Position numbers and translations under genes: made by a program | Notes under the pieces: model-generated | The model's database searches: none | Seen by the model: the letters and a program-made list of their open reading frames with translations, nothing else | Told to the model about the DNA's origin: nothing | Shown: positions 378 to 24,835 of the stretch, piece by piece | Numbering within the stretch: position 1 is the stretch's first letter | Layout of the letters: each line of letters begins with the position of its first letter | Assembly (NCBI GenBank): GCA_040876835.1 | Contig: JBBDOX010000016.1 | Location: 98,875-162,874, forward strand | Length of the DNA: 64,000 bases | Direction: 5' to 3' | Source: Candidatus Anderseniibacteriota bacterium | Lineage (GTDB): Bacteria > Patescibacteriota > Andersenbacteria > UBA10190

Positions 378-1649
378 ATGCAGCGACCGGTCACTATTTC
401 TCTCTCCCCCAATACCGAACTGGACGATATCCGGCAGGCGCATCGGGTATTGTGGCACCCGGCATCCTGGAAAGATACATCAATCTTTTCAGAGATCACC
501 AGCGCTCTTTCTTCGCATCTAGGTGGAAGAATGATTGCCCTTACCAGTTCGGCTCGCCAGGCTTTGTATGACGGCTTGCGGGCTGCCGGAATCGGCAAGG
601 GTGATGAAGTTATAGTTCAGGCTTTCACCTGCATTGCTGTACCCGAGCCGATTCTCTGGCTTAGCGCTACACCTGTCTATGCCGATATCATTCCGGATAC
701 GTACAATATTGATCCAGCAAGTGTGCGGGAGCGGATAACTGAAAAAACAAAGGCAATTATCATACAGCATACATTCGGTATTCCCGGACCGATTGAGGAG
801 CTTCGGGCAATCGCACGAGAGCACAACCTGCTGCTGATCGAGGATTGTGCCCATGCTTTAGGGGGCACCTATCACAATCAAGCGTTGGGTACATTCGGAG
901 ACATGGCCATTTTGAGCTTTGGTCGTGACAAGACGCTATCATCAGTGTTTGGGGGAGCGGTTGTGAGCGCTAATCAAACCCTTATCCGACGCATCCAGCA
1001 ATACGCTCAGGAGCGTTCATATCCGCCTCATCGCTGGGTATTCCAACAGCTGATGCACCCTGTTCTGCTCCACCTTCTTCTACCTCTGTATTTCACCGGC
1101 GGTATAGGCAAGGCAGCCTTAGTGCTCGCTCAGAAGTTGGGGATATTAAGCAAGGCCGTAGCTGTCGAAGAGCGGCAGGGTCGCCGACCTGGACATTTTC
1201 GTTATCGCTTCTCTCCAGCTTTAGGTCATCTGCTTCATATGCAGATCCATAAACTCCAGCGATTTACCAAAGCACGTCAAGATCTTGTTCGTGTGTACTT
1301 GGATGAGTTACGCGATGTTGTAACGCTGCCCACTATCCCGGCAAACTGCGAGCCGGCCTGGCTGCGATTTCCTATTTTGTCTAAAGACCCCAGGAAACTC
1401 CGAGACGAGGCGTTGGGTCAGGAGATGATGCTGGGTGACTGGTACGATGCCCCGCTCGTGCCCAGCACATGCTCCCTTGAAGCATTTAAATATACAGCGG
1501 GTTCCTGCCCGAATGCTGAGGACGTCGCACGTCGGGTGGTGAATCTTCCGACGTATCCCCTCTTAACTGACAAGCAGGCGACTCAGGTGGTGGAATTGGT
1601 AAAACACACCGAAGGCAGTAGTCTTGAATCATGGAATTTCGAGAAGTAA
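378..1649 (+). CDS. DegT/DnrJ/EryC1/StrS-family PLP-dependent sugar aminotransferase
   Basis: 423 aa. Characteristic layout: AxTSSARQAL near the N-terminus, then DEVIVQAFTCIA, then IEDCAHALG, then SFGRDKTLSS with the putative PLP lysine. Family assignment follows from the ordering of these motifs. Confidence 0.7.
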   Translation: MQRPVTISLSPNTELDDIRQAHRVLWHPASWKDTSIFSEITSALSSHLGGRMIALTSSARQALYDGLRAAGIGKGDEVIVQAFTCIAVPEPILWLSATPVYADIIPDTYNIDPASVRERITEKTKAIIIQHTFGIPGPIEELRAIAREHNLLLIEDCAHALGGTYHNQALGTFGDMAILSFGRDKTLSSVFGGAVVSANQTLIRRIQQYAQERSYPPHRWVFQQLMHPVLLHLLLPLYFTGGIGKAALVLAQKLGILSKAVAVEERQGRRPGHFRYRFSPALGHLLHMQIHKLQRFTKARQDLVRVYLDELRDVVTLPTIPANCEPAWLRFPILSKDPRKLRDEALGQEMMLGDWYDAPLVPSTCSLEAFKYTAGSCPNAEDVARRVVNLPTYPLLTDKQATQVVELVKHTEGSSLESWNFEK

Positions 1650-2650
1650 CAGATAAGAGACAGTGGAATGATTTTGTATTGGCCAAAGCGCCCAATACGT
1701 TTTTACAGTCCTGGGAGTGGGGTCAGATACAACAGCGTGATGGTGAGAAGGTTCGATACTTGGGATGGTTTGATGAAGAGCAACAGGTTGGCGCATCGCT
1801 GCTCATAACCGTAAAGGCGAGACGGGGTACTCATTTATTCTGCCCGCATGGCCCGATTGGAAAAGATGAGGTGACAACCCGTAAAATTATCCGGGAACTC
1901 GTTCAGCAGGTCCCGGCCTTTGCTCGGGAAGATGGTGCTGTAGCCCTGCGCATTGCTCCTCTGCTGGAAACTACAGTGGATACGAAGCAGCTCTTTAAAG
2001 ATCTCGGCTTCCGTCCATCCCCACTGCATGTTCACGCGGAACTTACCTGGGTGAAGGATATTTCCGCAGATGAGGAGTCCTTGCTTACTGCTATGCGCAA
2101 GACAACCCGGCACGCTATCAAGAAAGCCCAGAAGGAAGGTGTAACGGTTGAAGTTGTCCGCAATATCACAGCCTTAGATCGCTTTTGGCCCTTGTATATC
2201 GCGACAAAAAACCGTCACGAGTTTGTCCCGTTTCCTAAAGAGTTTATTGCGGCGCAGTTTGAAGAATTCATGAAGGAAGATCGGGCCTTTGCTATCATTG
2301 CTCGATACAATAATGAAGACGTAGCAGCCGCTGTCATTTTCCAGTTTGGCTCTACTTCTTTCTACTACCACGGTGCTTCAACGAAACTACCAGCATCCGT
2401 ACCGGCAGCTCAGCTGCTGCAGTGGGAGGCAATACGGGAAGCCAAACACAGTGGTGCAACCCGGTATAATTTCTGGGGAATTGCGCCAGACGATCAGCCG
2501 AATCATCCCTTCGCCGGCATCACGACATTTAAAAAAGGATTCGGTGGTAAAGCTGTAGATTACCTACACGCCCAGGACCTGCCGCTGTCGCCCAGGTACT
2601 GGAAACTGTGGGCTATAGATACGTATCGGAGAATACGCCGCGGGTTCTAG
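1631..2650 (+). CDS. FemAB-family (FemX-like) peptidoglycan interpeptide aminoacyl-transferase
   Basis: 339 aa. The N-terminal 'TFLQSWEWGQ' is typical of FemAB and lipid II aminoacyl transferases. The ORF overlaps the upstream gene by 19 nt. Confidence 0.5.
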   Translation: MEFREVTDKRQWNDFVLAKAPNTFLQSWEWGQIQQRDGEKVRYLGWFDEEQQVGASLLITVKARRGTHLFCPHGPIGKDEVTTRKIIRELVQQVPAFAREDGAVALRIAPLLETTVDTKQLFKDLGFRPSPLHVHAELTWVKDISADEESLLTAMRKTTRHAIKKAQKEGVTVEVVRNITALDRFWPLYIATKNRHEFVPFPKEFIAAQFEEFMKEDRAFAIIARYNNEDVAAAVIFQFGSTSFYYHGASTKLPASVPAAQLLQWEAIREAKHSGATRYNFWGIAPDDQPNHPFAGITTFKKGFGGKAVDYLHAQDLPLSPRYWKLWAIDTYRRIRRGF

Positions 2651-3054
2651 TATTTGTTCGCTTCAAGAGCAGAAATTCGTTTCTCGTACCGCTCCTGTTT
2701 TTCCTTGATCATCAGAACTTCATCACTACGGGCGGCACCGACATCCACCATTCGGTTATCAATATATGAATCAATATGTTCAAACAATTCATCAAATCGT
2801 TTATCCATTCTGCTCTCTAGACCATTCAAGTCGCTCTTTGTAGCCATCCTGAGTGTCTCCATATCATCCTTTGTAGCCATCCTGAGTGTCTCCATATCAT
2901 CCTTTGTAGCCATCCTGTTTTCAAGTGCCTTTAAATCGTCCTTGGTGGCAACCTGCTGAAACGCGGAATTTACCGCGTGCATCGCTTCGTTAAACTCACC
3001 TCGAGTGACAGGCTCATTAGGATCACCTTCGGCGGGAAGAATTTCAGCAATCAT
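2647..3054 (-). CDS. Small hydrophilic coiled-coil-like protein with 11-aa tandem repeats (RMATKDDMETL x2 plus a degenerate third)
   Basis: 135 aa ORF. It overlaps the upstream gene by 4 nt (ATGA) and is the last gene of a minus-strand operon. It contains a perfect 33-bp tandem DNA repeat. Confidence 0.5.
   Translation of the reverse strand: MIAEILPAEGDPNEPVTRGEFNEAMHAVNSAFQQVATKDDLKALENRMATKDDMETLRMATKDDMETLRMATKSDLNGLESRMDKRFDELFEHIDSYIDNRMVDVGAARSDEVLMIKEKQERYEKRISALEANKY
2841..2917. repeat. Perfect tandem direct repeat: 33-bp unit 'tagccatcctgagtgtctccatatcatcctttg' x2 (2841-2873, 2874-2906) plus an 11-bp partial third copy
   Basis: Read directly from the sequence. The repeat is in frame within CDS 2647-3054 and encodes KDDMETLRMAT repeats. 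Confidence 0.9.
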
Positions 3055-4511
3055 TCGCTCATTATGCCATCAGTTTCTGCGGTCAGCAACGCTTGTGAAG
3101 TAACTGCGGCGACAATCCAGAAAATCGCGTTTGTGGGAAAGATATCCCAGATATCAATGATAAGGGCTTGAACGAGAAAAGCGGTTAAGAATGCTCCGGC
3201 CCACAGACCAATCAGAGGCTTTTGTGTTCGAGCAATGCGCACGGCCGCACTTCCCACCCGCCAGTACAGCCAACCGTAGAGCACTAGCCCTACTACTCCC
3301 ATTTCTATAAACGTCTTCAGGTACTGGTTATCAACAAGAGTTTGGTCTTTCGTCAGTTGCACACTACGGGAGGCACCGGTGGCGATATCGTAGACTCCCA
3401 GATCAGTTTCACGGAAATTTTGCTCAAGCACGTCTCCTAACCCCCGTCCGAATACTGCTTCTGCATACGTCATGGGAGCAATCAAGCGCACGAGAAACTC
3501 GAGACGCTCCTCATTACTGCCGTAGGTAGGATCCACAATTGATCGCAGAAGCGGCCCAGCAGGAGTCGCTGTGACAAGCAGAATTCCCAGCAGCAATCCC
3601 CCGACTCCAAATCCGGTCGCCAGACTGGCAACTTTTTTTCTGGAGAGGCGTCCTGCTGCCAGATGCAGCAGGTAGAGTAGTCCCCCAACACCAAGAGCTG
3701 CTGCCAAGCCAAGCCAGACTCCTCGTGAATAGGTGGCGTATGTCACTATAAGAGACAGTATAACCGTTGCTAACACACCAGCTCGAATCTTCATTGAACG
3801 GACTGACACAGCAATTGCTACCAGCAATGTTTGGACAGTAATTAGGTATTCTCCGAAAATACTGGGGTGAGCCAGGATTCCGGAGATGCGCGGAATCCAG
3901 TTCTGGGTTAGCGGTTCAAACCGGAGCACCGCACTGTCCTGGGCAAAGAACCACTGCCAGGCGCCTAGAGATAATGTGACGATAAACGTGGCCAGTACCC
4001 ACCCCAGGCGCTGCTGCAAGGTTTTTTTATCATGCCGTAGGTACAGCACTCCGAAAAACAGGAGGATATACAACACGATATCTCGCAAGCGCAAAATACC
4101 CAGCACAAGAGAATCCGCCTGAAGGGCGGAAATAGTTGACCAGATCACTAAGGCTACGATCGGTGCCCACAAGATATTACGGCGATACTCCAATTTCTTC
4201 GCAAGCAGCGGAATGAAGAACATCCGCATAAATAACGTGATGATAATAACATCTTTAATGAGAGAGAAGGTGCCGATTGTCTGCGTAATTTTAAGCATTG
4301 GCAGAATGGGCATTAACACCAGAAAAAGGAGAAAGCCTTCCTCTGGATATTCCCATACCCACCAGGCAACAGCGGCAAACAGTAGAGTAAAGACGCCAAA
4401 TTGCAGACTAAAGAAAAAACTGATAAACGCTGCCACCAGGGTAATAATAAGCGCCCAGGCATAGCGCGGGTTAACTGTTAATCCTCTTGCATGTTCAAAG
4501 CGTCCAATCAT
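3051..4511 (-). CDS. O-antigen ligase / O-antigen polymerase family (Wzy_C) polytopic membrane protein
   Basis: 486 aa with about 10-12 hydrophobic segments. It carries a 'YATYSRGVWLGL' SRG motif, and later 'DNQYLKTFIEMGVVGLVLY', which resembles the Wzy_C H/N-x-YL...G..G signature. Confidence 0.55.
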   Translation of the reverse strand: MIGRFEHARGLTVNPRYAWALIITLVAAFISFFFSLQFGVFTLLFAAVAWWVWEYPEEGFLLFLVLMPILPMLKITQTIGTFSLIKDVIIITLFMRMFFIPLLAKKLEYRRNILWAPIVALVIWSTISALQADSLVLGILRLRDIVLYILLFFGVLYLRHDKKTLQQRLGWVLATFIVTLSLGAWQWFFAQDSAVLRFEPLTQNWIPRISGILAHPSIFGEYLITVQTLLVAIAVSVRSMKIRAGVLATVILSLIVTYATYSRGVWLGLAAALGVGGLLYLLHLAAGRLSRKKVASLATGFGVGGLLLGILLVTATPAGPLLRSIVDPTYGSNEERLEFLVRLIAPMTYAEAVFGRGLGDVLEQNFRETDLGVYDIATGASRSVQLTKDQTLVDNQYLKTFIEMGVVGLVLYGWLYWRVGSAAVRIARTQKPLIGLWAGAFLTAFLVQALIIDIWDIFPTNAIFWIVAAVTSQALLTAETDGIMSE

Positions 4512-5410
4512 GATATAAGCACTTTTTTATTTTTCTTCTGCACCATTCGATGCTTTAATGATGCCGGAAGAGACAGAAGGACGGCAACCGGGAACAAAAG
4601 CGTGAGAACTGCACCAGCAATGATTCCCAGATGTTTGTTTGCATACCGGTAACCACTCACGAGAAAAGGTAGCGAGCGTCGCAGTCCCACTAGTTGATTA
4701 AAACTTACTCCCCCGTAGTGCAGTACAGCAGCGTTCGGTGTATACATAGTTTTCCATCCAGCCTGCTGGGCTCGTTTGCAGTAATCAACCTCTTCAAACC
4801 AGATCCAATACCTTTCATCTAGCGGGCCGACCGCATCCATAGTTTCGTCGCGAATAAGATAGGCTGCCCCCTTTACTTCGTCCACCACCGTTTCGGTACT
4901 GATCCCAGCCTGCCCCTTCATGCTGTTGGGAAACAGTGAATGCAACTTCAGGTACACCGTAATAAGTGTTCCTAGTGTAGGAAAAGAATGAACGGAAGCC
5001 TGAAACTTTCCCCCCGGCTCAAACAGTTTTGGCCCCACAATACCTACATCGCCGTGCCGATCCAATACGTTCAGCATTGTCAGGAGGGCTGCCGGTTGAA
5101 CTTCCGTATCGGGATTTAATAACAGGATATGCTGATCCATTCCATGAGCGTGCAAAGTCCAATCAATGCCTACGTTATTGGCTTTGGCAAACCCTGCATT
5201 TGTTTTTAACTGCTTCCACTCAACCGGTATACCGTAGGTATCCACCTTAGCCTGCTCAACCGAATCATCCGTTGATGCGTTGTCAACCACTACCACCTGA
5301 GTGATCAGATCTTTTTCCGGTAAGGCGCTCAAAGATTCCAGACAACGCTTAAGCAGCGATCCAGTATTCCAGTTAACGATGATTACAGATAAACCTTTCA
5401 TGACAGACAC
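4508..5410 (-). CDS. GT2-family glycosyltransferase
   Basis: 300 aa. 'LSVIIVNWNTGSLLKRCLESL...VVVVDNASTDDS' is the classic GT-A N-terminus. Confidence 0.8.
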   Translation of the reverse strand: MSVMKGLSVIIVNWNTGSLLKRCLESLSALPEKDLITQVVVVDNASTDDSVEQAKVDTYGIPVEWKQLKTNAGFAKANNVGIDWTLHAHGMDQHILLLNPDTEVQPAALLTMLNVLDRHGDVGIVGPKLFEPGGKFQASVHSFPTLGTLITVYLKLHSLFPNSMKGQAGISTETVVDEVKGAAYLIRDETMDAVGPLDERYWIWFEEVDYCKRAQQAGWKTMYTPNAAVLHYGGVSFNQLVGLRRSLPFLVSGYRYANKHLGIIAGAVLTLLFPVAVLLSLPASLKHRMVQKKNKKVLIS

Positions 5411-6501
5411 CGATTAATAATATCAAACGTTTGTTGTGCTGTTTTCTCCCAGGTAAACTTCTGGGCTTGAGCAAGGCTCTTTGTAATGAGCTTGTCTCGC
5501 TCAAGGCGCGCCTGCTGAATACCACGAGCAATACTCGTAGGGTTATAGGGATCAACAAGTATAGCAGCCTCCCCGGCCACTTCTGGCATGGAGGAAACAT
5601 CACTCGTAACAACAGGTGCGCCACACGCCATCGCTTCTATAATCGGGATACCAAAGCCCTCATACAAGCTGACCAACGTAAATACTTCAGCATAAGTATA
5701 TAAAGCCGGGAGAAGTTCGTCGGATACGCGACCCAGCAATAAAATGTCCCTGACATAGGGTGAGGACTTGATACGATCTTCAATCGGTTTTCGTAGCCAA
5801 CCGTGACTGCCGCCGATAACCAGCTGTATTTCCGAGTCCTCCTTTTTAAGTTCTTCGAATGCTTCAATTAAACGAACCAGATTTTTTCGAGGCTGAATTT
5901 GTCCAAGATACAAGATATATGGCTTGCGTAATGCCGGATAGGCAGTTGCAAGTTGTTTCCAAGCAGATTCCTTCTCCTGCACATCAAACTTTTCATGATC
6001 CACACCGTGATGGACGACGTGCACATTCTTAGTACGGCCATATATCTTTTTAATATCATCAGCTGTTGTTTGAGACACCGCAATTAGGTGATCAGCCTCA
6101 ATAATTGCCTGTGCACCGAAAATGGTTAGCAACAGCCAGTTCTTGTAAGTAAACTGCTCGGGGAAGTAATGATAGGCCAGATCATGAATGACTGCGAGGG
6201 TTTTCATTTTGCGGGGACGAACAAGGGGCAGCTGCTGAATTGGCATAAACAAAAGATCCGGCTTTTCTTTATACAACTCCATCGGCATTCGGGACTGAGT
6301 CCAGTATTTCGGCCACGGAGACGGCGCCCACGCTGCATTATCTCTCAGCCTTGGGTGTGCCGGAACCTGACATTGCAGCATCATCTTCCAGGTATGTTCA
6401 GGTGCTACTTTTGGAAGACGGGCGACGAGCTCGTATGTGTACCGAGTCGTTCCGTCAGCCTGGCCGGCACACAGATCGGATGCATCAAAGGCGATTTTCA
6501 T
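5398..6501 (-). CDS. GT4-family (GT-B) glycosyltransferase
   Basis: 367 aa. 'SLYEGFGIPIIEAMACGAPVVTSDVSSMPEVAG' is the Glycos_transf_1 signature. Confidence 0.8.
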   Translation of the reverse strand: MKIAFDASDLCAGQADGTTRYTYELVARLPKVAPEHTWKMMLQCQVPAHPRLRDNAAWAPSPWPKYWTQSRMPMELYKEKPDLLFMPIQQLPLVRPRKMKTLAVIHDLAYHYFPEQFTYKNWLLLTIFGAQAIIEADHLIAVSQTTADDIKKIYGRTKNVHVVHHGVDHEKFDVQEKESAWKQLATAYPALRKPYILYLGQIQPRKNLVRLIEAFEELKKEDSEIQLVIGGSHGWLRKPIEDRIKSSPYVRDILLLGRVSDELLPALYTYAEVFTLVSLYEGFGIPIIEAMACGAPVVTSDVSSMPEVAGEAAILVDPYNPTSIARGIQQARLERDKLITKSLAQAQKFTWEKTAQQTFDIINRCLS

Positions 6502-9173
6502 GACCGTAGCGTATCACGAATTAATGCAAGTAATTGCCCCACACGGGCATCCCATCCATGCTGTCGAGCTAGTTCTTTCCGTTTAATTTCCCCCAGCGTC
6601 TCATGTCGCATCCACTCTTCGATTAATCGCTCGAATTCCCTCGACGAATGAGCATAGCCGATCAAATCCTCATACTGCTTCAATTCAGGCAATCCGGAAA
6701 CCACCAGCGGTTTGCCCGTAGCCATAAACTCCCAGAACTTTAGGGGGAAGCTGGCCTTGTTGTACGCGCTCGCCCGGTATGGAATGACGCAAACATCAAA
6801 GTAGTGGACATACGCAGGTACGTCTTCTCGCACGATTGTTCCCATTATGTGCACATTCGGTAGCTTTACCAACTCCGTTAAGGCTGGAGTTCTTTCATCA
6901 ACAACTGGCGACCCGACAAAAACAAATTGCCAGTCTGGATGCGCGCGAGCTACTGACTTAAGAAGCTCGAAATCAAATTTGTAAGCATCTAGCGCACCAA
7001 CCGATCCTATGATCGGATGCGGGATATCCTGAAGCGCTTCGAGCGCCCCCTGCTGCGCTGTTGCGGATACGGGTTTACTAAACAGTTCAACATCCCCAGC
7101 ATTCAAAACCAGACGCACGTTCTTGTGCTGACCTTTCTTCATGTCATATAGCGCTTTAGAAGTAACAGTGACGAGATCAGAGTGCTGAAATATCCGGTGT
7201 TCTTCAGCATGAACGCGTTTCGGATTGCGACTTACCCCCGCCTGCATCGCGTGATTATCAACACAGTCATATATCACCGTTGAGTTCGAAAAGGCATTCA
7301 GGTACTCAGCCGCCTCCGTGTCATAAATCCACATCACCTGTGTTCCCTCTCGAAAACCCAGCCACCAAGCCTTGCTCAACACACACCAGCGATTGAGGTA
7401 GTGATTCAGCAGTGCCACCCAGCGGTATTCACGGGAACCGGGAATGAGATTCCACTGAGAAATAACGTAGAGGTTTTGCTCATGTTGCTGATACCAGAGT
7501 ACTTGTTTTGCGAATTGAAGAAGTTCAGCAGGCTTCGCTAGGCGTTTCAAGAGATACCGCAGTATCCACACGCGTGGTTCGACGTACAATACGCGGTGCT
7601 GCTTCGCGACGCGATGCATCACGTGCTGACGATTCGTCCAGGTAGGTTGCAAATATTCCGCGCCGGCAAAACAGACAACATTCCATTGGTCGCTGGTAGT
7701 TTCTGCTCCCTTTTGTCGCTTAAGGAGACGAGCGACCTTGGTTGGAATCAGCTGGCTGCGATGGGCTTCGTACCCGGTATATACGCCGATGAGGATAAAT
7801 CCGATGATCCGATACACCAGACTAGGCTCCTGAAACAGCCACCAAACACTAGCAAATAACAGTGTAAGGAGTACTGCCAGCGGTTTCGTTAGGAGGGCAA
7901 TTCCATGTAGCCGCTTCGCGACCACGTTCATCCACACATAAGAGATAGCGGCGCCAGCCAACATGGCTGCACTGGCAAGTAGCGGATCAGGCTTAACAAA
8001 CAGGATCCATACTGTGAGAACCGCAGTTGTTGCCAGCATGACACCATAGATTGACATTCGGCGCTTCGGATCATTAGCCGGTACAAAAATGCTGCTGGTA
8101 CCGATATCCAGGAGGGCGTACAGAAAGAACGCGAGCGTCATCAGCCAGATAATGGGCTCGGCCGGGAGGTACTGCGGTCCGATGATGTACCGCAGTATTT
8201 CGGGCGTGAAGAATAACAGAACGAGTGTCATGAGCATCATCAGCACTAACACCCGATGCATATTCTTGGTTACATTCTTTGAAAATTCTTTCCGTTCGCT
8301 CTCATACAACGAGCTCATCCAGGCGAGGTTTACTTCGGAGAGTGCCATAGCAATAATGGTTAGCTTGGATCCAAAAGTAGACGAAACGTTCAGATATCCC
8401 AATTCTTCTACCGTTACAATCCCGCCTAGCGCTAAGATTGGCAGTCGCTGCCAGACCACAAAAAAGATGCGAGCCACATACATAAAGGCGCCGATGCGCA
8501 TTACGTTCCGCCCATATTTCTTTATATCTGCCTTATTCGGTAGCGACAGATTTCCTGCCAGATATTTGCGTAACAGCCACCAGAACATCACGACCATGAC
8601 GGTAGTGGTGAGAATAACTGCCCAGAAAAATCCACTGACACTAAAGCGCCAGGTTAGATACCCAAAGGCTGCGACATTCAATGTCGCGGTAATAATTTGC
8701 ACCCAGTACAGGGCGGCAAACTTTTTCATGCCGGTTAAGGTGGCGCCGAATACGTCTTGGAACCCTTGCAGTACGAGCGAAGCAGCAAATAGATAGATGT
8801 ATGGAATAATCTCCGGTTTGTTATATACCTTCACGGCAATAACGCCGGCTAGAGCCATCAGGCCAAGTGAGAGCGGAAGAGTAACTGCTTGCCTGACAAT
8901 ATTCGATACCCAAAACACCTTCCCTATCTCATCTTTTTTCTTTCTGATAGCGATCTCGCGAATAGCGCCATCGACGATGCCGAGGTGTTGTGAGACGCCA
9001 ATAACGCTGCCAATGGACATAACAAGGCCCACTAAACCGAATTCGGCGGGTGATAGGACGCGGACGATGATAATGCTTTGAATGACGCCTAAGACGGTAG
9101 TAACCGCCTTAGTCGTTAATGAGAAGAATTGGGTTCGCGCTAAATCCATAAGGCGTATTGTAACCCGTAACAA
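6498..9173 (-). CDS. Fusion protein: N-terminal Wzx-like polysaccharide flippase (MOP superfamily, about 480 aa, about 14 TM) plus a C-terminal GT4-like glycosyltransferase domain
   Basis: 891 aa uninterrupted ORF. The N-terminus resembles polysaccharide-biosynthesis (Wzx) proteins. The C-terminal about 390 aa ends 'FVFVGSPV...YRASAYNKASFPLKFWEFMATGKPLVVSGLPE', typical of a GT-B C-domain. Confidence 0.65.
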   Translation of the reverse strand: MLRVTIRLMDLARTQFFSLTTKAVTTVLGVIQSIIIVRVLSPAEFGLVGLVMSIGSVIGVSQHLGIVDGAIREIAIRKKKDEIGKVFWVSNIVRQAVTLPLSLGLMALAGVIAVKVYNKPEIIPYIYLFAASLVLQGFQDVFGATLTGMKKFAALYWVQIITATLNVAAFGYLTWRFSVSGFFWAVILTTTVMVVMFWWLLRKYLAGNLSLPNKADIKKYGRNVMRIGAFMYVARIFFVVWQRLPILALGGIVTVEELGYLNVSSTFGSKLTIIAMALSEVNLAWMSSLYESERKEFSKNVTKNMHRVLVLMMLMTLVLLFFTPEILRYIIGPQYLPAEPIIWLMTLAFFLYALLDIGTSSIFVPANDPKRRMSIYGVMLATTAVLTVWILFVKPDPLLASAAMLAGAAISYVWMNVVAKRLHGIALLTKPLAVLLTLLFASVWWLFQEPSLVYRIIGFILIGVYTGYEAHRSQLIPTKVARLLKRQKGAETTSDQWNVVCFAGAEYLQPTWTNRQHVMHRVAKQHRVLYVEPRVWILRYLLKRLAKPAELLQFAKQVLWYQQHEQNLYVISQWNLIPGSREYRWVALLNHYLNRWCVLSKAWWLGFREGTQVMWIYDTEAAEYLNAFSNSTVIYDCVDNHAMQAGVSRNPKRVHAEEHRIFQHSDLVTVTSKALYDMKKGQHKNVRLVLNAGDVELFSKPVSATAQQGALEALQDIPHPIIGSVGALDAYKFDFELLKSVARAHPDWQFVFVGSPVVDERTPALTELVKLPNVHIMGTIVREDVPAYVHYFDVCVIPYRASAYNKASFPLKFWEFMATGKPLVVSGLPELKQYEDLIGYAHSSREFERLIEEWMRHETLGEIKRKELARQHGWDARVGQLLALIRDTLRS

Positions 9174-9219
9174 CTAGCGCGTCTTAGGGAGTTTTGCAAG
9201 TAGAAGAAATTTATTAAAC

Positions 9220-9248
9220 AAAAAAATAGCAGCGTTTTCTACACTGCT
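9220..9248 (-). terminator. Rho-independent terminator for gene 9278-9739
   Basis: On the minus-strand RNA an 8-bp stem (AGCAGUGU / ACGCUGCU, including one G-U pair) with a 5-nt loop is followed by AUUUUUUU. On the plus strand this is 9228-9235 and 9241-9248, with the A-run at 9220-9226. Confidence 0.5.
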
Positions 9249-9277
9249 GATTCCTTCAATCAAAGTGCTTAGCCGCC

Positions 9278-9739
9278 CTACTCCTGCGCTGGCCAGGGAG
9301 GAGCCATCTGGGCAAGGTGATTCAGTTTGCTTCGTACCGTGGAAATGATGCGCTCAATCTGAATACGGACGCGGTTCCGTTTGTCCTGACTGACCGGCTC
9401 ATCATAGTACCGCTGCACTGACCCTGATTCGAACAGAGACGAGACAAGATCATCCGTTGATGCGAGCCCGTGCGTATCCGGCCCCGGGGTGAACCGCCAC
9501 AGTCCGTCTGCCCTAAACGAGTAGTTTTCGAAGACGTCAAGAATGTAGTTGTGGCTTCCTTGTTTGCGCATCGTCTCGAGGAGCGCTTTGATGGCCTGCG
9601 CCTCTTCCCCTTCAAGTAAATCGCGGAGCTCCGAGATGGCGCGATCGAACGCTTCCTGGAAAAGAGTGGTCGAAGACCATCTTTTTGCAGCGTCTTGCCA
9701 TCGATTCACCCATTCCTTGCTATCAACTTGATCAGACAC
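9278..9739 (-). CDS. Hypothetical soluble protein (153 aa)
   Basis: ORF with its own downstream terminator. G+C is higher than in the neighbouring genes. No recognisable motif. Confidence 0.45.
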   Translation of the reverse strand: MSDQVDSKEWVNRWQDAAKRWSSTTLFQEAFDRAISELRDLLEGEEAQAIKALLETMRKQGSHNYILDVFENYSFRADGLWRFTPGPDTHGLASTDDLVSSLFESGSVQRYYDEPVSQDKRNRVRIQIERIISTVRSKLNHLAQMAPPWPAQE

Positions 9740-9846
9740 TTGCTGTCTCCCCTATGTTAAGGAACATTCGTCTGTGTCCTCGCAGTCACGCTAGAGCGAC
9801 AAACAAGACAGTCTTATTTAGCATATGCATTAAAAAATTGCAACGG

Positions 9847-10941
9847 TTATCTTTGTAGCAGCAAGTCTAACTTCTTCGCTTGGACTTTCCAGATAAACCT
9901 CTGTCTAGCCCGCTTCTGTCCCTCGTCCCCTAAACGAATCGCAAGTGTTGTATCTAGCAATAATTTTTCCAGTGCTCCCTTTATGCCATCAGCATCCCCC
10001 TCTTCTACTAACAGCCCCGTCTCGTTATCAACAACGGCTCCCGGCACTCCCCCATGTTTCGTTCCAATAACAGGAGTTCCCGCTGCATTCGCTTCTAAAT
10101 ACACAATTCCAAATCCCTCTATATCCCCATCAACATTCTTTGGCGTTAAAGCGAATACGGAAGCTCCAGCTAAAAGTGCTGGCAGGTCAGCTTCATCAAC
10201 GTGGCCTAAGAATTTTGGTTGAACAAATAACTGTCGTGAAAGCTGTTGCAGCCGCTCTTTCTCCGGCCCCTCACCAACAATCACCAGCTGAACATCGCCA
10301 AGGGTTGTTTGTTCTAGCTTTGAATATGCTGTGATTAAATCATCAACGCCTTTGCGAGGTATAAGCCGGGCGACGATAATGATGTATGGCTTCTCGATGT
10401 CGTATTTTTCTAATACGTCTCCATTCTCTGACGCATTAAGATACGTTTCCTCAACTCCAGGTTGTACCTCCACAAGCTTATCAGACGTAACACCAAGTGC
10501 TTCTAACTTTGATTTCGTATGATCATTTATATACACAACCGATTGTGCGTGAGTCAGCGCTTGGATTAGCTTCTTCTTCTTGGTCTTCTCCCACTCTTCA
10601 ATTTCCATCGCATATGTGAAGACGATATACGGAACTCCATATTTCTTGTTTAGTATATATCCAAGTAACCCTTCGAATAATCCTTTGCCGCAAAGTAACA
10701 TATCAATTTCTTTCCGCTTAGCTTTTCTGGCGATATGCCAGTACAGCGGCAACCACGCCGGTTTTATAATCGGCCAAAAGAAACGCCTAGCGGTAATACC
10801 CTCACCGCCCGTACTGCCTTGGGGCGCTATAACTTCAACCTCGTGGTTCAGTAGTCGCAGCTCTTTCACAAGGTTGGTAAGATATCGCTCGATACCTCCA
10901 ACCCGAGGTGGCCAGTTTTCTGTCAGCAGTAATATCTTCAT
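9847..10941 (-). CDS. GT4-family glycosyltransferase
   Basis: 364 aa. N-terminal 'MKILLLTENWPPRVGGIERY'. C-terminal 'GFGIVYLEANAAGTPVIGTKHGGVPGAV'. Confidence 0.8.
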   Translation of the reverse strand: MKILLLTENWPPRVGGIERYLTNLVKELRLLNHEVEVIAPQGSTGGEGITARRFFWPIIKPAWLPLYWHIARKAKRKEIDMLLCGKGLFEGLLGYILNKKYGVPYIVFTYAMEIEEWEKTKKKKLIQALTHAQSVVYINDHTKSKLEALGVTSDKLVEVQPGVEETYLNASENGDVLEKYDIEKPYIIIVARLIPRKGVDDLITAYSKLEQTTLGDVQLVIVGEGPEKERLQQLSRQLFVQPKFLGHVDEADLPALLAGASVFALTPKNVDGDIEGFGIVYLEANAAGTPVIGTKHGGVPGAVVDNETGLLVEEGDADGIKGALEKLLLDTTLAIRLGDEGQKRARQRFIWKVQAKKLDLLLQR

Positions 10942-11911: not shown

Positions 11912-11927
11912 CCCGCGGTGGGTTTTT
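11902..11927 (+). terminator. Rho-independent terminator
   Basis: cccacc (11903-11908) and ggtggg (11917-11922) form a stem with an 8-nt loop, followed by TTTTT at 11923-11927. Confidence 0.45.
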
Positions 11928-13356
11928 AATATGCTTTAACCAGCTTTACCCCCTTGAAGTAATAGCTCAGAATTTTTTGAAAGCTCCAACCATCAGCCTT
12001 GGCAAACCCAAAGGCTCCTTGAGCACTCATACCAACACAGTGTCCCCTACAACTACTCGAAGCGTGATGCGGATCTTTTACCGAGTGCTGGAGATGAGGG
12101 AAACGGCTTGTGTTCCAGACTTCCTTGGCACTGCGAGTGCGCCCATCAGAATCCGAGAAGTATACTGTGGTCACCAAGTTATCTGCCTGACTATCAGTCA
12201 CTACAACTCCCTTTGTCTTATCAAAGATACTCGACATGCGAGAAGTTATAAGTTCATATTCATATCCACGGTAAAGCTGGTCATCGGCAGTATTAGTAAT
12301 GTCATATCCTTTAGCGGGATTTCGTCCGCCAGTAACTACCTTGTGGTAAAGAGCATATGTTCGAGCCGCTGCTCCCAGGGCTTTAATATATTCCTCTGGC
12401 CCCTCTCCTGAAGTTTCGGCTAATCCACGCAGATAATACTCCAAACGAAGCTCATTAATCGCCCACAACTCATTACACCCATTGCACTTTCGGATTTCAA
12501 TAATCCCCCGAAAACGATTGTAGTTCTTACCGGCATATGTAACGGAGGGATCGCTGTAGCTGGTTATTTGCATGATCGCCTGATTAAGAGGCACCAGACG
12601 AATTTCTCCAACTGTATCAAAACTAACTCCCGAGCCGCGCACGTGGTACTTACCATCAGACCAGGAGACCTGTACGTCATCGTCCTTACCGAGAGTTCCC
12701 AAAACCTTAAAGCCACCCTCCCGAATCTGGTAGGAACCATTGGCGGTAACATGAATTGCTCTACCATCGGTTTTGAAAATCCCGATCCGGATTTGATCAC
12801 CAGCTGGATGAGTGCTCACCCCAGCAATACTTCTACGAATAATGCCGCCTCCAGCAGACGCCACAGCTGCAGCCGGCTTCTGTCCACAAATAGTGTCCGA
12901 TCCCTTTCGAGACTTTTTCGCATGGTGATATTTCATCGAACCAATCAAAGCGGTCCGAGACTTAATCTCCCCACACGAAATGCGCTTTCTCCACCAGGCT
13001 TTTTCGGTGTTGGAAGGATCTGAGCTATAAATTTGTACAAAGAGAGGCAAGACATCTTTTATCATGGTCTGCTTATCATTAGAGCCTATGATCGTAGTAG
13101 CTGCGGCGGCTGGGGCAGTGCTGCCGCCCCCCGCTTTCTGGTAATACATGGCTCCAAGCAAAGCTTCATAGGTTTTCTTTTCACCCCTAACGACACGTCC
13201 CGCCCAATAGAGGTTTTCTGTAGGAGTGGGGTTTTTCCCATAAGCGGTGCGGAAAGCCTCATTGACACGACTTACCAATGGTGGGGTTTGAGCATGGGCG
13301 TTTCCAGCAAATAAAAGAATAACCAGACAGCCCAATGCGAAGGAAAGTTTCTTCAT
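11926..13356 (-). CDS. Secreted SpoIID/LytB-domain protein (amidase-enhancer / lytic transglycosylase-like)
   Basis: Signal peptide MKKLSFALGCLVILLFAGNAHAQ. The C-terminal region 'ELWAINELRLEYYLRGLAETSGEGPEEYIKALGAAARTYALYH' matches the SpoIID/LytB core pattern. The listed ORF extends to a TTG at 13392, but the ATG at 13356 is preferred. Confidence 0.55.
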   Translation of the reverse strand: MKKLSFALGCLVILLFAGNAHAQTPPLVSRVNEAFRTAYGKNPTPTENLYWAGRVVRGEKKTYEALLGAMYYQKAGGGSTAPAAAATTIIGSNDKQTMIKDVLPLFVQIYSSDPSNTEKAWWRKRISCGEIKSRTALIGSMKYHHAKKSRKGSDTICGQKPAAAVASAGGGIIRRSIAGVSTHPAGDQIRIGIFKTDGRAIHVTANGSYQIREGGFKVLGTLGKDDDVQVSWSDGKYHVRGSGVSFDTVGEIRLVPLNQAIMQITSYSDPSVTYAGKNYNRFRGIIEIRKCNGCNELWAINELRLEYYLRGLAETSGEGPEEYIKALGAAARTYALYHKVVTGGRNPAKGYDITNTADDQLYRGYEYELITSRMSSIFDKTKGVVVTDSQADNLVTTVYFSDSDGRTRSAKEVWNTSRFPHLQHSVKDPHHASSSCRGHCVGMSAQGAFGFAKADGWSFQKILSYYFKGVKLVKAY

Positions 13357-13454
13357 AGCCTGTGCATAATACCAAATTAGGCGGGATGCCAAAATGTTGA
13401 CATATTATTCTTATTATAGTATTGTAATATCCAATTTATACTACAATAGATACT

Positions 13455-20248: not shown

Positions 20249-20288
20249 CTCCTTTCGATGTTGGCTTGAATCGCTGTATGCTATCCGT

Positions 20289-22628
20289 ATGTTAACTGAG
20301 CTTAATTTTTGGCAGGCAATATGGGTCGTTATCCTGCCTTTGCTCGTTATTGCTGTTCCCGGAAAATTCCTGGTTTCTTTTTCGAACCCGCGCAATATTG
20401 CAGCAACAGCCGTACATATTTTTGTATCTAGTTTAAGTATCTGGACTCTTGGCGCACTGCTGCTGACAGTTATTCATCTGCCATTAAGTGTTTTTTATGG
20501 GATTGGCATTGTTGTCTGTCTAGGGTTGCTATGGTGGCATCGTTACCAGTTATTCCAGCTTAAAACTCTATGGTATGTACTGGCGATTACTCTCCCTCTC
20601 CTTATTACCTATGCCGCCTTTACGATTCCGTATCTACGCATTCACAACGGACTACCCACCGGGGATTCTCAGAAAGCGATTTACTGGGCTCAAGATGTCT
20701 TGGAGCGCCCTGCTTTACCTGACTACAGTCGAGCGCCGGCGGTATTGAATAGAGATCCGGTTGATTTCTTTACGCCCGGACTGCATTCCCTGGTTGCTGC
20801 GGTTATGGACCTTTCTCCTGCTCCACTTATGTCTGTGGGCTTACTCGCCCTCGTTATATCTGTCGCAGTGGCGTTTCTGGCTGCGGCAATAATTAAGGAG
20901 CTATTTGATGATTACCCCCATATTATTCCACCGCTTCTAGCCGCAGTTTTTGTACTGACCAATTTTCGCTTTCTACGGTATATTCGTGAGCCAGGATACC
21001 ATTTCCAGAATCTCGTCGGGGAGTTCTTTCTATTTGCGTTAGTGTTCTATGGTCTGCGATTCATAAAGAAAAAGAAAACCAGTGATGTGATTCTGGGAGT
21101 AGCTGCGGGTCTTTCGCTTATCTTTACTCACCAGTTCTCAGCATTTATCGCTCCTTTCGTTTTAATACCGATTGTTATTGCGGCTTTAGTCAAAGACCGT
21201 CAACATATCCGGCAGTTCTTTTGGAAGCACGTTGCAGCCGCCGTTGCCTTGATGATCGCCGCTGCCATCATCATCGGAGGCGGGTTTCTCCTGGGGCTTC
21301 ACCAAAAAATTCCGCACATTTTCTCTAGCGACCCACATCTCATTTCTCTTGTTCGCCCGCTCACGGAATACCCACTCACCATGGGATCTATATGGTTTGT
21401 AAGCGGTATTGCCGGATTTATTCTCATGTTGTGGCAGGCGAAGAAATATCAGGCACACTATGAGGCGGTTTGGGCCTTCGCCGGAGTGACGCTGGTTATC
21501 CTTCTGCTTTCGCAGGGCCCGCGACTATATATCGATATTCCTCCCGTTCGCGCCCTCCTGTACTCGATCGTGCCGTTGAGTATTGGCGCCGCATATTTCT
21601 TTGCCAAGCTCCTGCAGACTATTCGAATGTCAAATAGTCTGCTCATTCGCTTCGTACTTACGGGCATCTGGCTGGTAGTGATATTCTTTCCCGCATGGTC
21701 ATCAACGGGTAGGGCGTTTACAACAACTAGTCACACTGTTCAAACGAACTCGACGCTAACTCCTGAGCAACTCGTTCTTGTTGATGCAATAAAGGAACAG
21801 ACCACCGATCCCACAGCTGGGATACTCATTGATGATTATAACCGTCGCAGCAGTTCCTGGTTAATTCTCTCGGGGCAACCAATGTACACCAGAATCGCTG
21901 CGGATATTGAACGACAGATGGAGGAGGCTGAGCAGTCGCCGACTCGAGAAGAGCTATATCTTACTCTTCTGGATTACGAGAAAATATTTTCATTGGGTAG
22001 CAGGCCTGAACTGATTCACCTGCTCTACAAGCACAACATTCACTGGGTTACGGGAATATCAAAAAGCAGCAATACGTCTTTCGCAAAAAACCCTGCTTTA
22101 GCTCCAGTGGCCACCGACGGAGACATTACGCTGTATAGCCCAGAAGAGGCTGTGTCGTGCGAAATTAATTCTCGCTGCGCCTGGCTTCTTCGGGCCAGCA
22201 CCCTCGTTAATGATATCGGGGATAACGAAGATACGTTCGAACATCTACCAGCCAGTATTCGCGCTGCCCGCTTATCAACTCCTCAGCAAAACATTACATC
22301 CACCTTCCGAACCACCACTGCACCAATTATTCCCTTGGCATTTAATGTTGGGGACTTTGCTCGTATTTTGTGGGATAAGGAGCACACTGGCCGCCCAGAT
22401 ACGGCGGTCGAACTGATGATCGAATTTGCTTACACGCCTTCTAACCCCCTAACTATCCTAACAGCGACCGGAGTACCCTACCCCATCCCGCCCACAGGAG
22501 TAATCCGAATTCCCGGGCGTGAGGTGCCTTTCGATGAGCGCGGATTTATAACCCTGAGTGTACAAAACCCCGCGCAGGAACTTGTCGCAATTGATATGAT
22601 TGCCTTAGGGTTAAGCCACATTCCATGA
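20289..22628 (+). CDS. Large polytopic membrane protein (780 aa) with a C-terminal soluble domain; YfhO/GT-C-like
   Basis: The start was moved to the ATG at 20289, the first in-frame start after the upstream stop at 20246-20248. N-terminal loop motif 'PTGDSQKAIYW'. About 12 TM followed by an approximately 330-aa hydrophilic domain. Confidence 0.45.
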   Translation: MLTELNFWQAIWVVILPLLVIAVPGKFLVSFSNPRNIAATAVHIFVSSLSIWTLGALLLTVIHLPLSVFYGIGIVVCLGLLWWHRYQLFQLKTLWYVLAITLPLLITYAAFTIPYLRIHNGLPTGDSQKAIYWAQDVLERPALPDYSRAPAVLNRDPVDFFTPGLHSLVAAVMDLSPAPLMSVGLLALVISVAVAFLAAAIIKELFDDYPHIIPPLLAAVFVLTNFRFLRYIREPGYHFQNLVGEFFLFALVFYGLRFIKKKKTSDVILGVAAGLSLIFTHQFSAFIAPFVLIPIVIAALVKDRQHIRQFFWKHVAAAVALMIAAAIIIGGGFLLGLHQKIPHIFSSDPHLISLVRPLTEYPLTMGSIWFVSGIAGFILMLWQAKKYQAHYEAVWAFAGVTLVILLLSQGPRLYIDIPPVRALLYSIVPLSIGAAYFFAKLLQTIRMSNSLLIRFVLTGIWLVVIFFPAWSSTGRAFTTTSHTVQTNSTLTPEQLVLVDAIKEQTTDPTAGILIDDYNRRSSSWLILSGQPMYTRIAADIERQMEEAEQSPTREELYLTLLDYEKIFSLGSRPELIHLLYKHNIHWVTGISKSSNTSFAKNPALAPVATDGDITLYSPEEAVSCEINSRCAWLLRASTLVNDIGDNEDTFEHLPASIRAARLSTPQQNITSTFRTTTAPIIPLAFNVGDFARILWDKEHTGRPDTAVELMIEFAYTPSNPLTILTATGVPYPIPPTGVIRIPGREVPFDERGFITLSVQNPAQELVAIDMIALGLSHIP

Positions 22629-24076
22629 AACAATCACGACTCACTGGTGCTGTCTTTCTGATGGGAGCCCAAGCTTTTGTGCTCGGCTTGGGATATATCA
22701 CACACCTCATCATTGGACGATTGTTGGGGCCGGGGCCATACGGCGTCTATGGCGTCGTGCTGTCCATACAGTCAATTTTGGGAATATTCTTGGCCCTTGG
22801 AGTACCAAGTGCCGTATCGCGTTTTGTAGCTCAAGATGAGCAGCACGCTAAAAGTATCTTACGTCAGGCGCTCAGACTACAGGCATATATCGCCGTTGGG
22901 TTATCTCTCAGTACAGTTCTACTCGCTCCAGTTATTGCTCGGATACTAAACGATACCAACCTGACGCCGATTATCTACTTTGTTGCATTGGTTATCTTCT
23001 CTCAAGCGTTTTATCAAGTGCACGCTCAGTTCTTAAGTGGCATGCACTTTTTCAATCGGCAGGCAGCACTAACATCTCTGTATGCTGTGGCCAAACTTGT
23101 TGGAGCCTTGGCTCTCATCTTTGTGTTCGGAGTGTACGGAGCCTTCGCTGGCTTTATTGTCGGAGGTACCATTGCAGCGGCTGTGGGGTGGTACTGGACG
23201 AAAAAAGTTGGCGGCGATCGACACAAAAAACTACCAATGAAGTCTTTTCTTTCTTTCGCCGGAATCTACGTTCTGATTCTTGTTGGTCTCCAGCTACTCA
23301 TGAGCCTGGATTTATTTATGGTCAAGGCTCTTTTACAGGATGATGTGCAGGCAGGCTATTATAATGCGGCCGTAACCCTGTCACGTATTTCCTACTTCAT
23401 TCTCCAAGGGCTGACTTATATTATTCTGCCCAGTGTCTCCGCTCTAACCAAACCGGGAATGTCACATGATAAGGCGGCTGCATTTATTCGTGACGTCCTG
23501 CGGTATTTAATCGCCCTTATAGTTCCCAGCGTTGCTTTGGCGGCAGCAACCAGTAAGAATCTCATTATTCTGTTCCTCTCTCGTGAATATTTACCTGCCG
23601 CACCTCTCCTCACAGTGTTGATGGTGGGTCTAGGCGGGTTAGCCTTTTATCTCCTGCTCACAACAATTGTCGCAGGAGCCGGTAAGGCCAAGATTGGGCT
23701 GTATATTACAGTTGGACTCATTGTGTTGAGCGCTATCCTGGGCACCATTCTAATACCTCGTTTTGGCTTAATCGGCGGCGCCTGGCAAACAACAATTACC
23801 TCGCTCGTGGGGCTACTAGTCCTGGGAGTATATTCTTTCCGAACTTTCAGCATTCCTGTGCCGGTGAAAAGTGTTATTAACATTATTATTGCTACCGGCA
23901 TCGCTGTTGCGCCGACATATGTCTGGTCAGCTCCCTCGCTTCTACTACCAGTCCAATACGTCGTTTTGCTGTTGCTGTATATTATTGCGCTATGGGTTCT
24001 GGGTGAAATTTCAGTCAAGGATCGCACGTATCTTGCTTCTCTGCATCCGAAGCTTAAGTGGGTGATTAAGAAGTAG
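22625..24076 (+). CDS. Wzx-like oligosaccharide/polysaccharide flippase (MOP superfamily)
   Basis: 483 aa with about 12-14 TM. Its profile is similar to polysaccharide biosynthesis proteins. It overlaps the upstream gene by 4 nt. Confidence 0.6.
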   Translation: MKQSRLTGAVFLMGAQAFVLGLGYITHLIIGRLLGPGPYGVYGVVLSIQSILGIFLALGVPSAVSRFVAQDEQHAKSILRQALRLQAYIAVGLSLSTVLLAPVIARILNDTNLTPIIYFVALVIFSQAFYQVHAQFLSGMHFFNRQAALTSLYAVAKLVGALALIFVFGVYGAFAGFIVGGTIAAAVGWYWTKKVGGDRHKKLPMKSFLSFAGIYVLILVGLQLLMSLDLFMVKALLQDDVQAGYYNAAVTLSRISYFILQGLTYIILPSVSALTKPGMSHDKAAAFIRDVLRYLIALIVPSVALAAATSKNLIILFLSREYLPAAPLLTVLMVGLGGLAFYLLLTTIVAGAGKAKIGLYITVGLIVLSAILGTILIPRFGLIGGAWQTTITSLVGLLVLGVYSFRTFSIPVPVKSVINIIIATGIAVAPTYVWSAPSLLLPVQYVVLLLLYIIALWVLGEISVKDRTYLASLHPKLKWVIKK

Positions 24077-24667: not shown

Positions 24668-24835
24668 ATGGTAAATACTTTTACAGACCGTGTATTTTGG
24701 ACACTCTTGATTGCCATCGGAATCATTGCTGCTGCCCGTTGGCTACATCCCGCAACTTTTAGCGTGCAAACATTTCTGGTCGTGACTGTGATTACCTTTA
24801 TTGTGGGGGTTCTGTATCTTAAAAAATCCTCCTAA
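24668..24835 (+). CDS. Small 2-TM membrane protein (55 aa), missed by the ORF track
   Basis: The ATG at 24668 lies 3 nt after the upstream stop. Translation is MVNTFTDRVFWTLLIAIGIIAAARWLHPATFSVQTFLVVTVITFIVGVLYLKKSS. Its stop overlaps the next start in a TAATG junction at 24833-24837. Confidence 0.35.
   Translation: MVNTFTDRVFWTLLIAIGIIAAARWLHPATFSVQTFLVVTVITFIVGVLYLKKSS

Follow-up and report, generated by a model that had tools for sequence, protein, structure and literature searches.

Does one open reading frame (ORF) of an uncultivated bacterium from groundwater really encode a polysaccharide flippase and a glycosyltransferase (GT) in one chain, and, if so, what could such a linkage be good for? 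The question is raised by a gene on the minus strand of a 64-kb stretch of DNA (hereafter the window) from Candidatus Anderseniibacteriota, which the NCBI taxonomy places in the Parcubacteria group of Patescibacteria. In an earlier note, made from the letters of this DNA alone, the gene had been described as a natural fusion of a Wzx-type flippase with a GT4-like glycosyltransferase. As shown below, the fusion is a genuine single gene and not an assembly artefact. We consider it probable that it tethers one repeat-unit GT to its own flippase within a Wzx/Wzy-type pathway and in this way couples an assembly step with export.

A single gene, conserved across one lineage

The mechanically called ORF runs uninterrupted over positions 6498 to 9173 of the minus strand and counts 891 codons from a TTG at 9173, which is the length given in the earlier note. 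Eight codons inside it lies the ATG at 9149, from which the protein begins MDLARTQ..., and this ATG is almost certainly the real start of the gene, since an identical database protein (P0001, from an NCBI metagenome-assembled genome (MAG) of Candidatus Andersenbacteria; 100% identity and coverage) has 883 aa and all homologues begin at the equivalent Met. The uninterrupted reading frame thus stands, while the length has to be corrected to 883 aa. In existing annotation, the product name used by JGI covers both domains ('O-antigen/teichoic acid export membrane protein/glycosyltransferase...'), and that of NCBI covers the flippase only ('oligosaccharide flippase family protein').

What establishes the fusion as natural is its recurrence in independent material. 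Among the matches listed from a search of 5.8 billion proteins, at least 120 protein clusters show the same architecture, almost all of them 850–915 aa long and with both domain sets, at 53–85% identity and 95–100% query coverage, and they come from NCBI, JGI, ENA and Logan assemblies. A scan with one genome per GTDB species yielded 38 loci, and a probe spanning the junction (aa 400–560) gave a single stop-free segment at all 31 of those at which the junction was present and at least 47% identical. The comparison with related genomes that the earlier note had proposed therefore found the gene fused wherever the junction could be assessed in this way, and split only in more distant relatives. 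The existence of these split-gene relatives is the one thing that would lend some colour to a mis-assembly or sequencing frameshift having joined two separate genes; the same in-frame junction recurs, however, across independent projects and assemblers, the GC content is unbroken along the gene, and homology runs on across the junction, so that the artefact is ruled out and we give it a negligible chance. An apparent break in L032 is a run of N (a scaffold gap) away from the junction, and an in-frame TAA at 4690–4735 of L021 (a Patescibacteria MAG, JACZRJ010000010.1) lies in a variable loop of the GT domain, not at the junction; a pseudogene, a sequencing error or a secondary split at another site could each explain it.

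Both halves are conserved, with mean column identities of 70% in the transmembrane (TM) domain and 64% in the GT domain, as against 34% at aa 457–488 around the junction. This high identity argues that both halves are under constraint, and so does the large number of polar residues that never vary, K724 and E807 at canonical nucleotide-binding positions among them. As an aside on naming, many GTDB representative records with the Andersenbacteria-type operon (L001, L003, L006 and others) are titled 'uncultured Candidatus Saccharibacteria bacterium'; these look like placeholder names, as gene content and the GT-domain tree place the loci in Andersenbacteria.

The architecture is also rare. When 1.84 billion representatives at 50% identity were searched exhaustively with HMMER, 17,116 matches came out, and the best 150 of them held one full-length fused representative (P0036) plus junction-spanning fragments, the remainder being stand-alone GTs of 385–425 aa, flippases of 475–505 aa and large proteins of 775–2277 aa. 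When ten of the long GT-domain matches (775–1183 aa) were scanned, they proved to be tandem GT–GT proteins, one with an N-terminal methyltransferase and none with a flippase. The C-lobe of the GT recurs, besides, in giant proteins of 1000–2277 aa (P0138, P0155, P0181, P0189 and others). No plasmid record among 72,556 carried both halves of the fusion (tblastn), and literature text searches of partial coverage, hence weak negatives, found neither a described natural Wzx–GT fusion nor any work on Andersenbacteria glycosyltransferases. With one full-length fused cluster in the best 150 matches and no described precedent found, 'unusual', the word chosen in the earlier note, is a fair one. What is new is the architecture, so far seen in one uncultivated lineage, while both domain families and the type of pathway are known.

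The two halves and the tether

By family, fold and genomic context, the N-terminal half is a Wzx/PST (polysaccharide transport) family protein of the multidrug/oligosaccharidyl-lipid/polysaccharide (MOP) superfamily, and transport is its predicted function. The Pfam models Polysacc_synt_3 (PF13440) and Polysacc_synt (PF01943) match aa 27–330 (E-value 2.6e-21; 76.6 bits vs. a cutoff of 23) and aa 8–266 (50.9 bits vs. 28.2), respectively. Hydropathy and the positive-inside rule give 14 TM segments with both termini in the cytoplasm, and the AlphaFold2 model of the fusion, computed from alignment A1 of 48 homologues (mean predicted local distance difference test (pLDDT) score 88.5; predicted template modelling (pTM) score 0.62), places 14 TM helices at aa 3–464. 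The membrane half of this model resembles WzxE (PDB 9g9p, TM-score on target 0.84) and MurJ in a Foldseek search of the PDB, and thus shows the polytopic two-bundle fold of 12–14 TM helices seen in Wzx, MurJ and MATE-like proteins. The earlier note had made its fusion claim depend on domain searches finding a flippase in the N-terminal half; they do find it, and its figure of about 14 TM helices agrees with both topology and model.

The fused flippase is not the lipid II flippase of the cell, a reading that was tried and ruled out because a strong MurJ is encoded separately in the window; PF03023, the MurJ family, is absent from the fusion protein at E-values up to 0.1. Curated Wzx models barely match the fusion (28.9 bits to PRK10459 vs. 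a cutoff of 273), and a sequence search of the PDB returned no relative with a solved structure for either half.

The C-terminal half is placed in the cytoplasm by the predicted topology, i.e., by the 14 TM helices with their positive-inside pattern, and it looks like a working enzyme of a distinct GT-B subfamily. Glyco_trans_1_4, Glycos_transf_1 and Glyco_trans_1_2 match its C-lobe (aa 712–875), all above their gathering scores (49.1 bits vs. 27 for PF13692 and 39.5 bits vs. 26.4 for PF00534). A complete two-lobe Rossmann GT-B fold is modelled by AlphaFold2 at aa 490–883, and Foldseek relates this soluble half to MshA, HepE, PimB', BshA, PglA and GumK in the PDB. Its best NCBIfam match is TuaH (NF047676; E-value 7e-40, aa 614–873 on profile positions 110–380), at 137 bits vs. 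the curated equivalog cutoff of 550.

Alignment of the domain with six canonical GT4 enzymes of the same window shows where it keeps to the GT4 pattern and where it departs from it. E807, which is invariant, occupies the position of the second Glu of the EX7E motif, and K724 that of the canonical Lys, but the first Glu position is occupied by Ala799, preceded by a five-residue insertion; the Gly-rich motif of the N-lobe is replaced by an invariant WTNRQ(H); neither Glyco_transf_4 nor Glyco_trans_4_4 matches the N-lobe at E-values up to 0.1; and a basic amphipathic helical stretch of 40 residues (aa 526–565), plausibly a membrane-surface element, is inserted in the N-lobe. Since stand-alone relatives have the same EX7E and N-lobe features, these oddities are not adaptations to the fusion. 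The invariant motifs of the subfamily are WTNRQ, YDCVD.H and FPLKFWE, and K804, W806 and E807 are unchanged across the 48 homologues; it is from the many invariant polar residues, to which the residues of WTNRQ, E524, R526, D628/D631/H633, T663/S664, K724 and N797 also belong, that we argue for an active domain. On sequence grounds, then, the half is assigned to the Glycos_transf_1 GT-B clan, being neither a canonical GT4 nor a TuaH orthologue. Accordingly, the earlier description of a complete GT-B/GT4-like domain holds for the complete GT-B fold and the clan and fails for the canonical GT4 part (Ala799, no Gly-rich motif, TuaH far below threshold), and the statement that the domain ends in KFWEFMATGKPLVVSGLPE was mistaken, as this motif sits at aa 804–822, about 60 residues short of the C-terminus.

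Some more distant members of the GT subfamily deserve a remark of their own. Relatives of the GT domain in Proteobacteria, at 24–29% identity, are sometimes fused to UDP-galactopyranose mutase (Glf): the homologue at 6079–8382 of L045 (Azospirillum brasilense plasmid p4, WP_137142992.1; about 26% identity) accounts for the N-terminal half of a protein of 767 aa, which carries the annotation UDP-galactopyranose mutase, and similar matches occur in Sphingobium and in Pantoea ('FAD-dependent oxidoreductase' genes). The GT–Glf fusion suggests that some members of the subfamily are galactofuranosyltransferases, a lead on the type of donor that applies to those distant proteins only. One distant proteobacterial relative adjoins a MOP flippase and an acyltransferase in an exopolysaccharide (EPS) cluster.

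Between the halves lies a 23-residue tether (Table 1), at the place near nt 7700–7750 where the junction had been expected. AlphaFold2 gives it a short helix at aa 470–477 and a pLDDT below 50 at aa 480–484. It was also inspected for a relic of the old start Met of the GT, and the idea was rejected: a Met occurs in the 10 residues ahead of strand beta-1 in 6 of the 48 fused proteins, a number for which Met frequency alone accounts.

Operon, split relatives and the case for coupling

Judged by its gene families, the operon GT4 – fusion – GT4 – GT2 – Wzy-like has the content of a Wzx/Wzy-dependent glycopolymer pathway. Besides the fused GT it encodes three other glycosyltransferases, and the order SpoIID – GT4 – flippase/GT – GT4 – GT2 – Wzy_C is syntenic at about 35 loci (tblastn) and partly kept in the split relatives, so that the fused flippase keeps the company of repeat-unit GTs and a Wzy-type gene that is expected of the Wzx/PST family.

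In the coupled pathway that we favour, the GT domain would use a cytoplasmic nucleotide sugar to lengthen a polyprenyl-diphosphate-linked repeat unit by one sugar on the cytoplasmic side of the membrane, and the tether of about 20 residues to TM14 would hold it beside the cytoplasmic entrance of the flippase. The flippase half would then translocate the unit, and a Wzy-like protein would polymerise or ligate it outside. The benefit would lie in an obligatory 1:1 stoichiometry and in the co-localisation of the committed assembly step with export, and the coupling could keep carrier lipid from being tied up in dead-end lipid-linked intermediates. Stoichiometry and proximity are a plausible advantage because Wzx flippases strongly prefer their cognate, complete unit (PMC6436433) and because accumulating undecaprenyl-diphosphate intermediates are toxic, the carrier lipid being trapped in them (PMC11706664). 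For Rhizobium, it has been proposed that a terminal GT touches the flippase, a matter which ambiguous two-hybrid data have left unresolved (PMC7589315).

The history of the gene can be read from five more distant relatives, in which flippase and GT genes are separate but adjacent in the same operon order. L028, L035, L036 and L037 have two genes instead of one, at 39–47% identity, and a further split example (L040–L042) reads GT4 – flippase – GT – GT4 – GT2 – Wzy_C with overlapping gene calls. The stand-alone GTs start M(K)DVIVFAGAxYDxPLWTNRQH, which is exactly the start point of the fused GT domain (NVVCFAGAEYLQPTWTNRQH). A neighbour-joining tree built from GT domains groups all fused sequences in one clade, with the split ones as its sister, and so speaks for a single fusion event. 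Most simply, two adjacent genes would have fused once, when the clade's ancestor lost the stop through a 1-nt shift where the genes overlapped in ATGA, and the fusion would have persisted ever since.

Such a history says little by itself about function, and some observations weigh against coupling. The tether varies in sequence and length and the pTM is only 0.62, so that a fixed interface between GT and flippase is not demonstrated; the sister lineages function with two separate proteins, so that the covalent linkage is not required; the lipid acceptor is assumed, because no initiating phosphoglycosyl transferase was found in the operon or among the scanned ORFs of at least 150 aa in the window; and, with the first Glu of EX7E missing, the GT could be of the retaining or the inverting class. 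The poorly conserved tether and the lack of confident inter-domain packing in the model are also what the main rival would predict, namely a neutral accident at a gene boundary, in which the loss of a stop between coupled genes was tolerated and the two domains work independently, with nothing gained beyond co-expression. ATGA overlaps make a fusion by a 1-nt frameshift easy, and relatives with split genes have retained this operon and, presumably, its pathway. We nevertheless find this accident rather unlikely, for the fusion is present at 31 of 31 loci and no reversion was seen, even though the members of the clade have drifted apart to about 50% identity, and in the split relatives the flippase gene is still followed by the gene for this very GT, despite the three others in the operon. 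The conserved adjacency points to a specific functional pairing.

How far the coupling goes is a further question. That the GT domain performs the last transfer step, as the earlier note assumed, is an attractive possibility, and the step would then be a hand-over or a gating, although this role is not readable from the operon, where three further GTs are present and the sequence does not give the order of steps. We put forward only tentatively, as something that may well turn out otherwise, a hard-wired hand-over in which the tethered GT, working right at the inward-open cavity of the flippase to which it is joined, adds the sugar that completes or licenses the unit, so that only finished units are exported. 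Were it true, the split relatives would form the same complex non-covalently, the fusion would be a natural 'Rosetta stone' for Wzx flippases generally docking one particular glycosyltransferase, and structural work on a GT–Wzx assembly would have a single-chain target ready to hand.

The close relatives of the GT domain are often found in giant tandem multi-GT proteins, an architecture reminiscent of polymerising enzymes. This would suit a Pel-like synthase, with the GT-B domain as a processive polymerase whose product is exported by the MOP domain as it grows. Complexes of a cytoplasmic GT with a MOP-like exporter are indeed known from Pel, according to PMC13254593 (citing Whitfield 2020, PMC7099134). 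We think a Pel-like synthase highly improbable here: the fusion has no match to the PelG family at E-values up to 0.1 (Pfam), no PelD- or PelE-like domains were reported among the scanned neighbouring ORFs, and a Wzy_C protein with three more GTs is the signature of repeat-unit assembly with external polymerisation.

Slightly less probable still, and scarcely to be expected, is that the GT glycosylates diacylglycerol, a phospholipid or polyprenyl-monophosphate and that the MOP domain flips the product as an anchor or as a sugar donor for the outer side, in the manner of the MprF/PplT synthase–flippase fusions. This reading draws on the lipid-acting enzymes among the GT-B relatives from the fold search (PimA, PimB', DGD2 and a WaaG), on the wealth of GT-C-type (PMT, YfhO) enzymes in the window, which need lipid-linked donors outside the cell, and on the unrelated PplT family, for which fusions of a flippase domain with GT-A or GT-B domains are documented (bioRxiv 10.1101/2022.03.11.483950). 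The repeat-unit route accounts better for the tight synteny with Wzy_C and three GTs. Polyprenyl-phosphate sugar donors, moreover, are normally made by GT2 (GT-A) enzymes, and we know of no MOP flippase established for them.

Table 1. Positions of the fusion gene, its parts and its neighbours in the window, and of the separate genes in four split relatives
Feature	Position	Strand	Remarks
Flippase–glycosyltransferase fusion gene	6498..9149	-	883 aa + stop; ATG at 9149
Wzx-type MOP flippase domain, aa 1–465, 14 TM helices	7755..9149	-	N-in, C-in (predicted)
Tether QLIPTKVARLLKRQKGAETTSDQ, aa 466–488, 23 aa	7686..7754	-	Length and sequence variable in the family; low model confidence
Cytoplasmic GT-B glycosyltransferase domain, aa 489–883	6501..7685	-	TuaH-like subfamily (predicted)
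FPLKFWEF motif, aa 801–808	6726..6749	-	From alignment; E807 = second Glu of GT4 EX7E
GT4a, canonical GT4 glycosyltransferase	9847..10941	-	Upstream of fusion; Pfam Glycos_transf_1 + Glyco_transf_4
153-aa ORF	9278..9739	-	No family match; between GT4a and fusion gene
Terminator-like hairpin + T-run	9228..9248	-	Between 153-aa ORF and fusion gene; consensus scan only
GT4b, canonical GT4 glycosyltransferase	5398..6501	-	Start overlaps fusion stop by 4 bp
GT2 glycosyltransferase	4508..5410	-
Wzy_C-family membrane protein	3051..4511	-	Putative repeat-unit polymerase or ligase; PF04932, E 4.7e-13
135-aa ORF	2647..3054	-	No family match; operon end
DegT-family sugar aminotransferase	378..1649	+	Convergent with operon
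FemAB-family protein	1631..2650	+	Convergent with operon
SpoIID/LytB-domain protein	11926..13392	-	Conserved upstream neighbour of operon
Stand-alone Wzx-type flippase	22625..24076	+	25% identical to the fused one
MurJ lipid II flippase	26052..27635	+	PF03023, E 1.5e-72
Four PMT/PMT_2 membrane proteins (GT-C-type)	44572-46095, 50192-51730, 59695-61740, 63294-63986
YfhO membrane protein (GT-C-type)	56834-59749
Seven large ORFs	16096-17892, 20046-22628, 24835-26055, 40805-42919, 46100-48388, 51734-54112, 54682-56883
L035, flippase; GT	7995-9422; 9419-10621		ATGA overlap
L036, flippase; GT	7986-9410; 9407-10576		ATGA overlap
L037, flippase; GT	Flippase ends at 7650; GT start overlaps		ATGA overlap
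L028, flippase; GT	7995-9422; 9423-10592		Same frame, one TAA between

Around the fusion gene, GT4a is syntenic in nearly all related loci, where it mostly abuts or is near the flippase gene, the 153-aa ORF not being found at this position in them. Terminator-like sites, one of which precedes the fusion gene, are no more numerous in the consensus scan than the shuffled expectation. The 135-aa ORF at the end of the operon has a counterpart only in the closest relative, L025. In Andersenbacteria, the FemAB and DegT genes keep their place beside the operon, on the other strand (also in L002, L003, L007, L009 and others), and the best match of the FemAB protein is the PEP-CTERM-associated FemAB model, below its cutoff; these two neighbours hint at a polymer carrying an amino-acylated amino sugar. 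The sugars themselves cannot be named, because no gene of the operon reaches an NCBIfam equivalog cutoff, the single match above a curated cutoff being the generic SpoIID/LytB model in the upstream neighbour.

Nearly all of the window is given over to glycan biosynthesis. Between 13455 and 63986 there are at least 17 GT2/GT4/GT9 glycosyltransferases, very dense for a small-genome bacterium of the candidate phyla radiation (CPR), along with three S-adenosylmethionine-dependent methyltransferases, a polysaccharide deacetylase, a weak TagF-like protein and five GT-C-type membrane proteins. Seven large ORFs of 406–860 aa among the GT genes have no Pfam match at E-values up to 1e-5 and may be uncharacterised membrane glycan-processing proteins. 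With the stand-alone Wzx, the MurJ and the fusion, at least three separate export routes for lipid-linked glycans are kept close together, and glycosyltransferases, three MOP flippases and several GT-C enzymes together take up at least 60 kb of this genome.

Known systems

For Wzx/Wzy pathways it is not yet settled how the building of lipid-linked repeat units in the cytoplasm is kept in step with their export. The lineage-wide fusion, together with the always adjacent split genes of the sister lineages, constitutes independent evolutionary evidence that one GT works with the flippase as a unit, and it indicates which of the operon's GTs should be examined for flippase coupling. The single-chain GT–Wzx protein, with its soluble domain of about 45 kDa, could aid cryo-electron microscopy of a small MOP transporter, for which the natural split relatives offer matched controls, and it also extends what little is known of how CPR/Patescibacteria make their envelope glycans.

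With the Wzx/MOP flippases (WzxE of Escherichia coli, PDB 9g9p, and TuaB of Bacillus subtilis) the fusion shares Pfam family, fold, GT and Wzy-like operon partners and, presumably, the job of flipping a polyprenyl-diphosphate-linked repeat unit; it differs in having 14 TM helices and a C-terminal cytoplasmic enzyme of about 400 aa, whereas WzxE has 12 TM helices and no soluble domain (PMC11706664). The tua operon of B. subtilis, for teichuronic acid, likewise combines a Wzx, a Wzy-like protein, GT4, GT2 and a TuaH-like GT, TuaH being a putative GT. We take TuaH, in distinction from the fused domain, to be a free protein whose gene is not adjacent to tuaB, and to our knowledge its own reaction is not defined. 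From canonical retaining GT4 enzymes that act on lipid-linked acceptors (PglA, PglH/WlaC, PimA and WaaG), the fused GT is set apart by the Ala at the first Glu of EX7E, by WTNRQH in place of the Gly-rich motif, by the insert in the N-lobe and by the missing Glyco_transf_4 match.

In logic, the fusion resembles the succession of MurG and MurJ, in which a membrane-associated GT-B enzyme finishes a lipid-linked precursor and a 14-TM MOP protein then translocates it. MurG and MurJ are separate proteins and the fusion is one chain, and no MurG or MurJ model matches the fused domains at E-values up to 0.1. Similar in build is MviN (Rv3910) of Mycobacterium tuberculosis, a MurJ with a cytoplasmic pseudokinase domain fused after TM14: in both, a 14-TM MOP protein carries an added C-terminal cytoplasmic domain, which is regulatory in MviN and would be a biosynthetic enzyme in the fusion.

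Physical association of a cytoplasmic glycosyltransferase with a polytopic exporter is also found in PelF–PelG, together with PelD and PelE (PMC13254593); unlike the fusion, that association is non-covalent and regulated by cyclic di-GMP, and it polymerises directly, with no Wzy. Finally, MprF and PplT join an enzyme that makes a membrane lipid product to the flippase of that product, in PplT with GT-A and GT-B enzymes among the fused partners (bioRxiv 10.1101/2022.03.11.483950). Their flippase belongs to an unrelated fold and superfamily and their substrates are phospholipids, whereas the Andersenbacteria protein would bring the same principle to polyprenyl-linked glycans.

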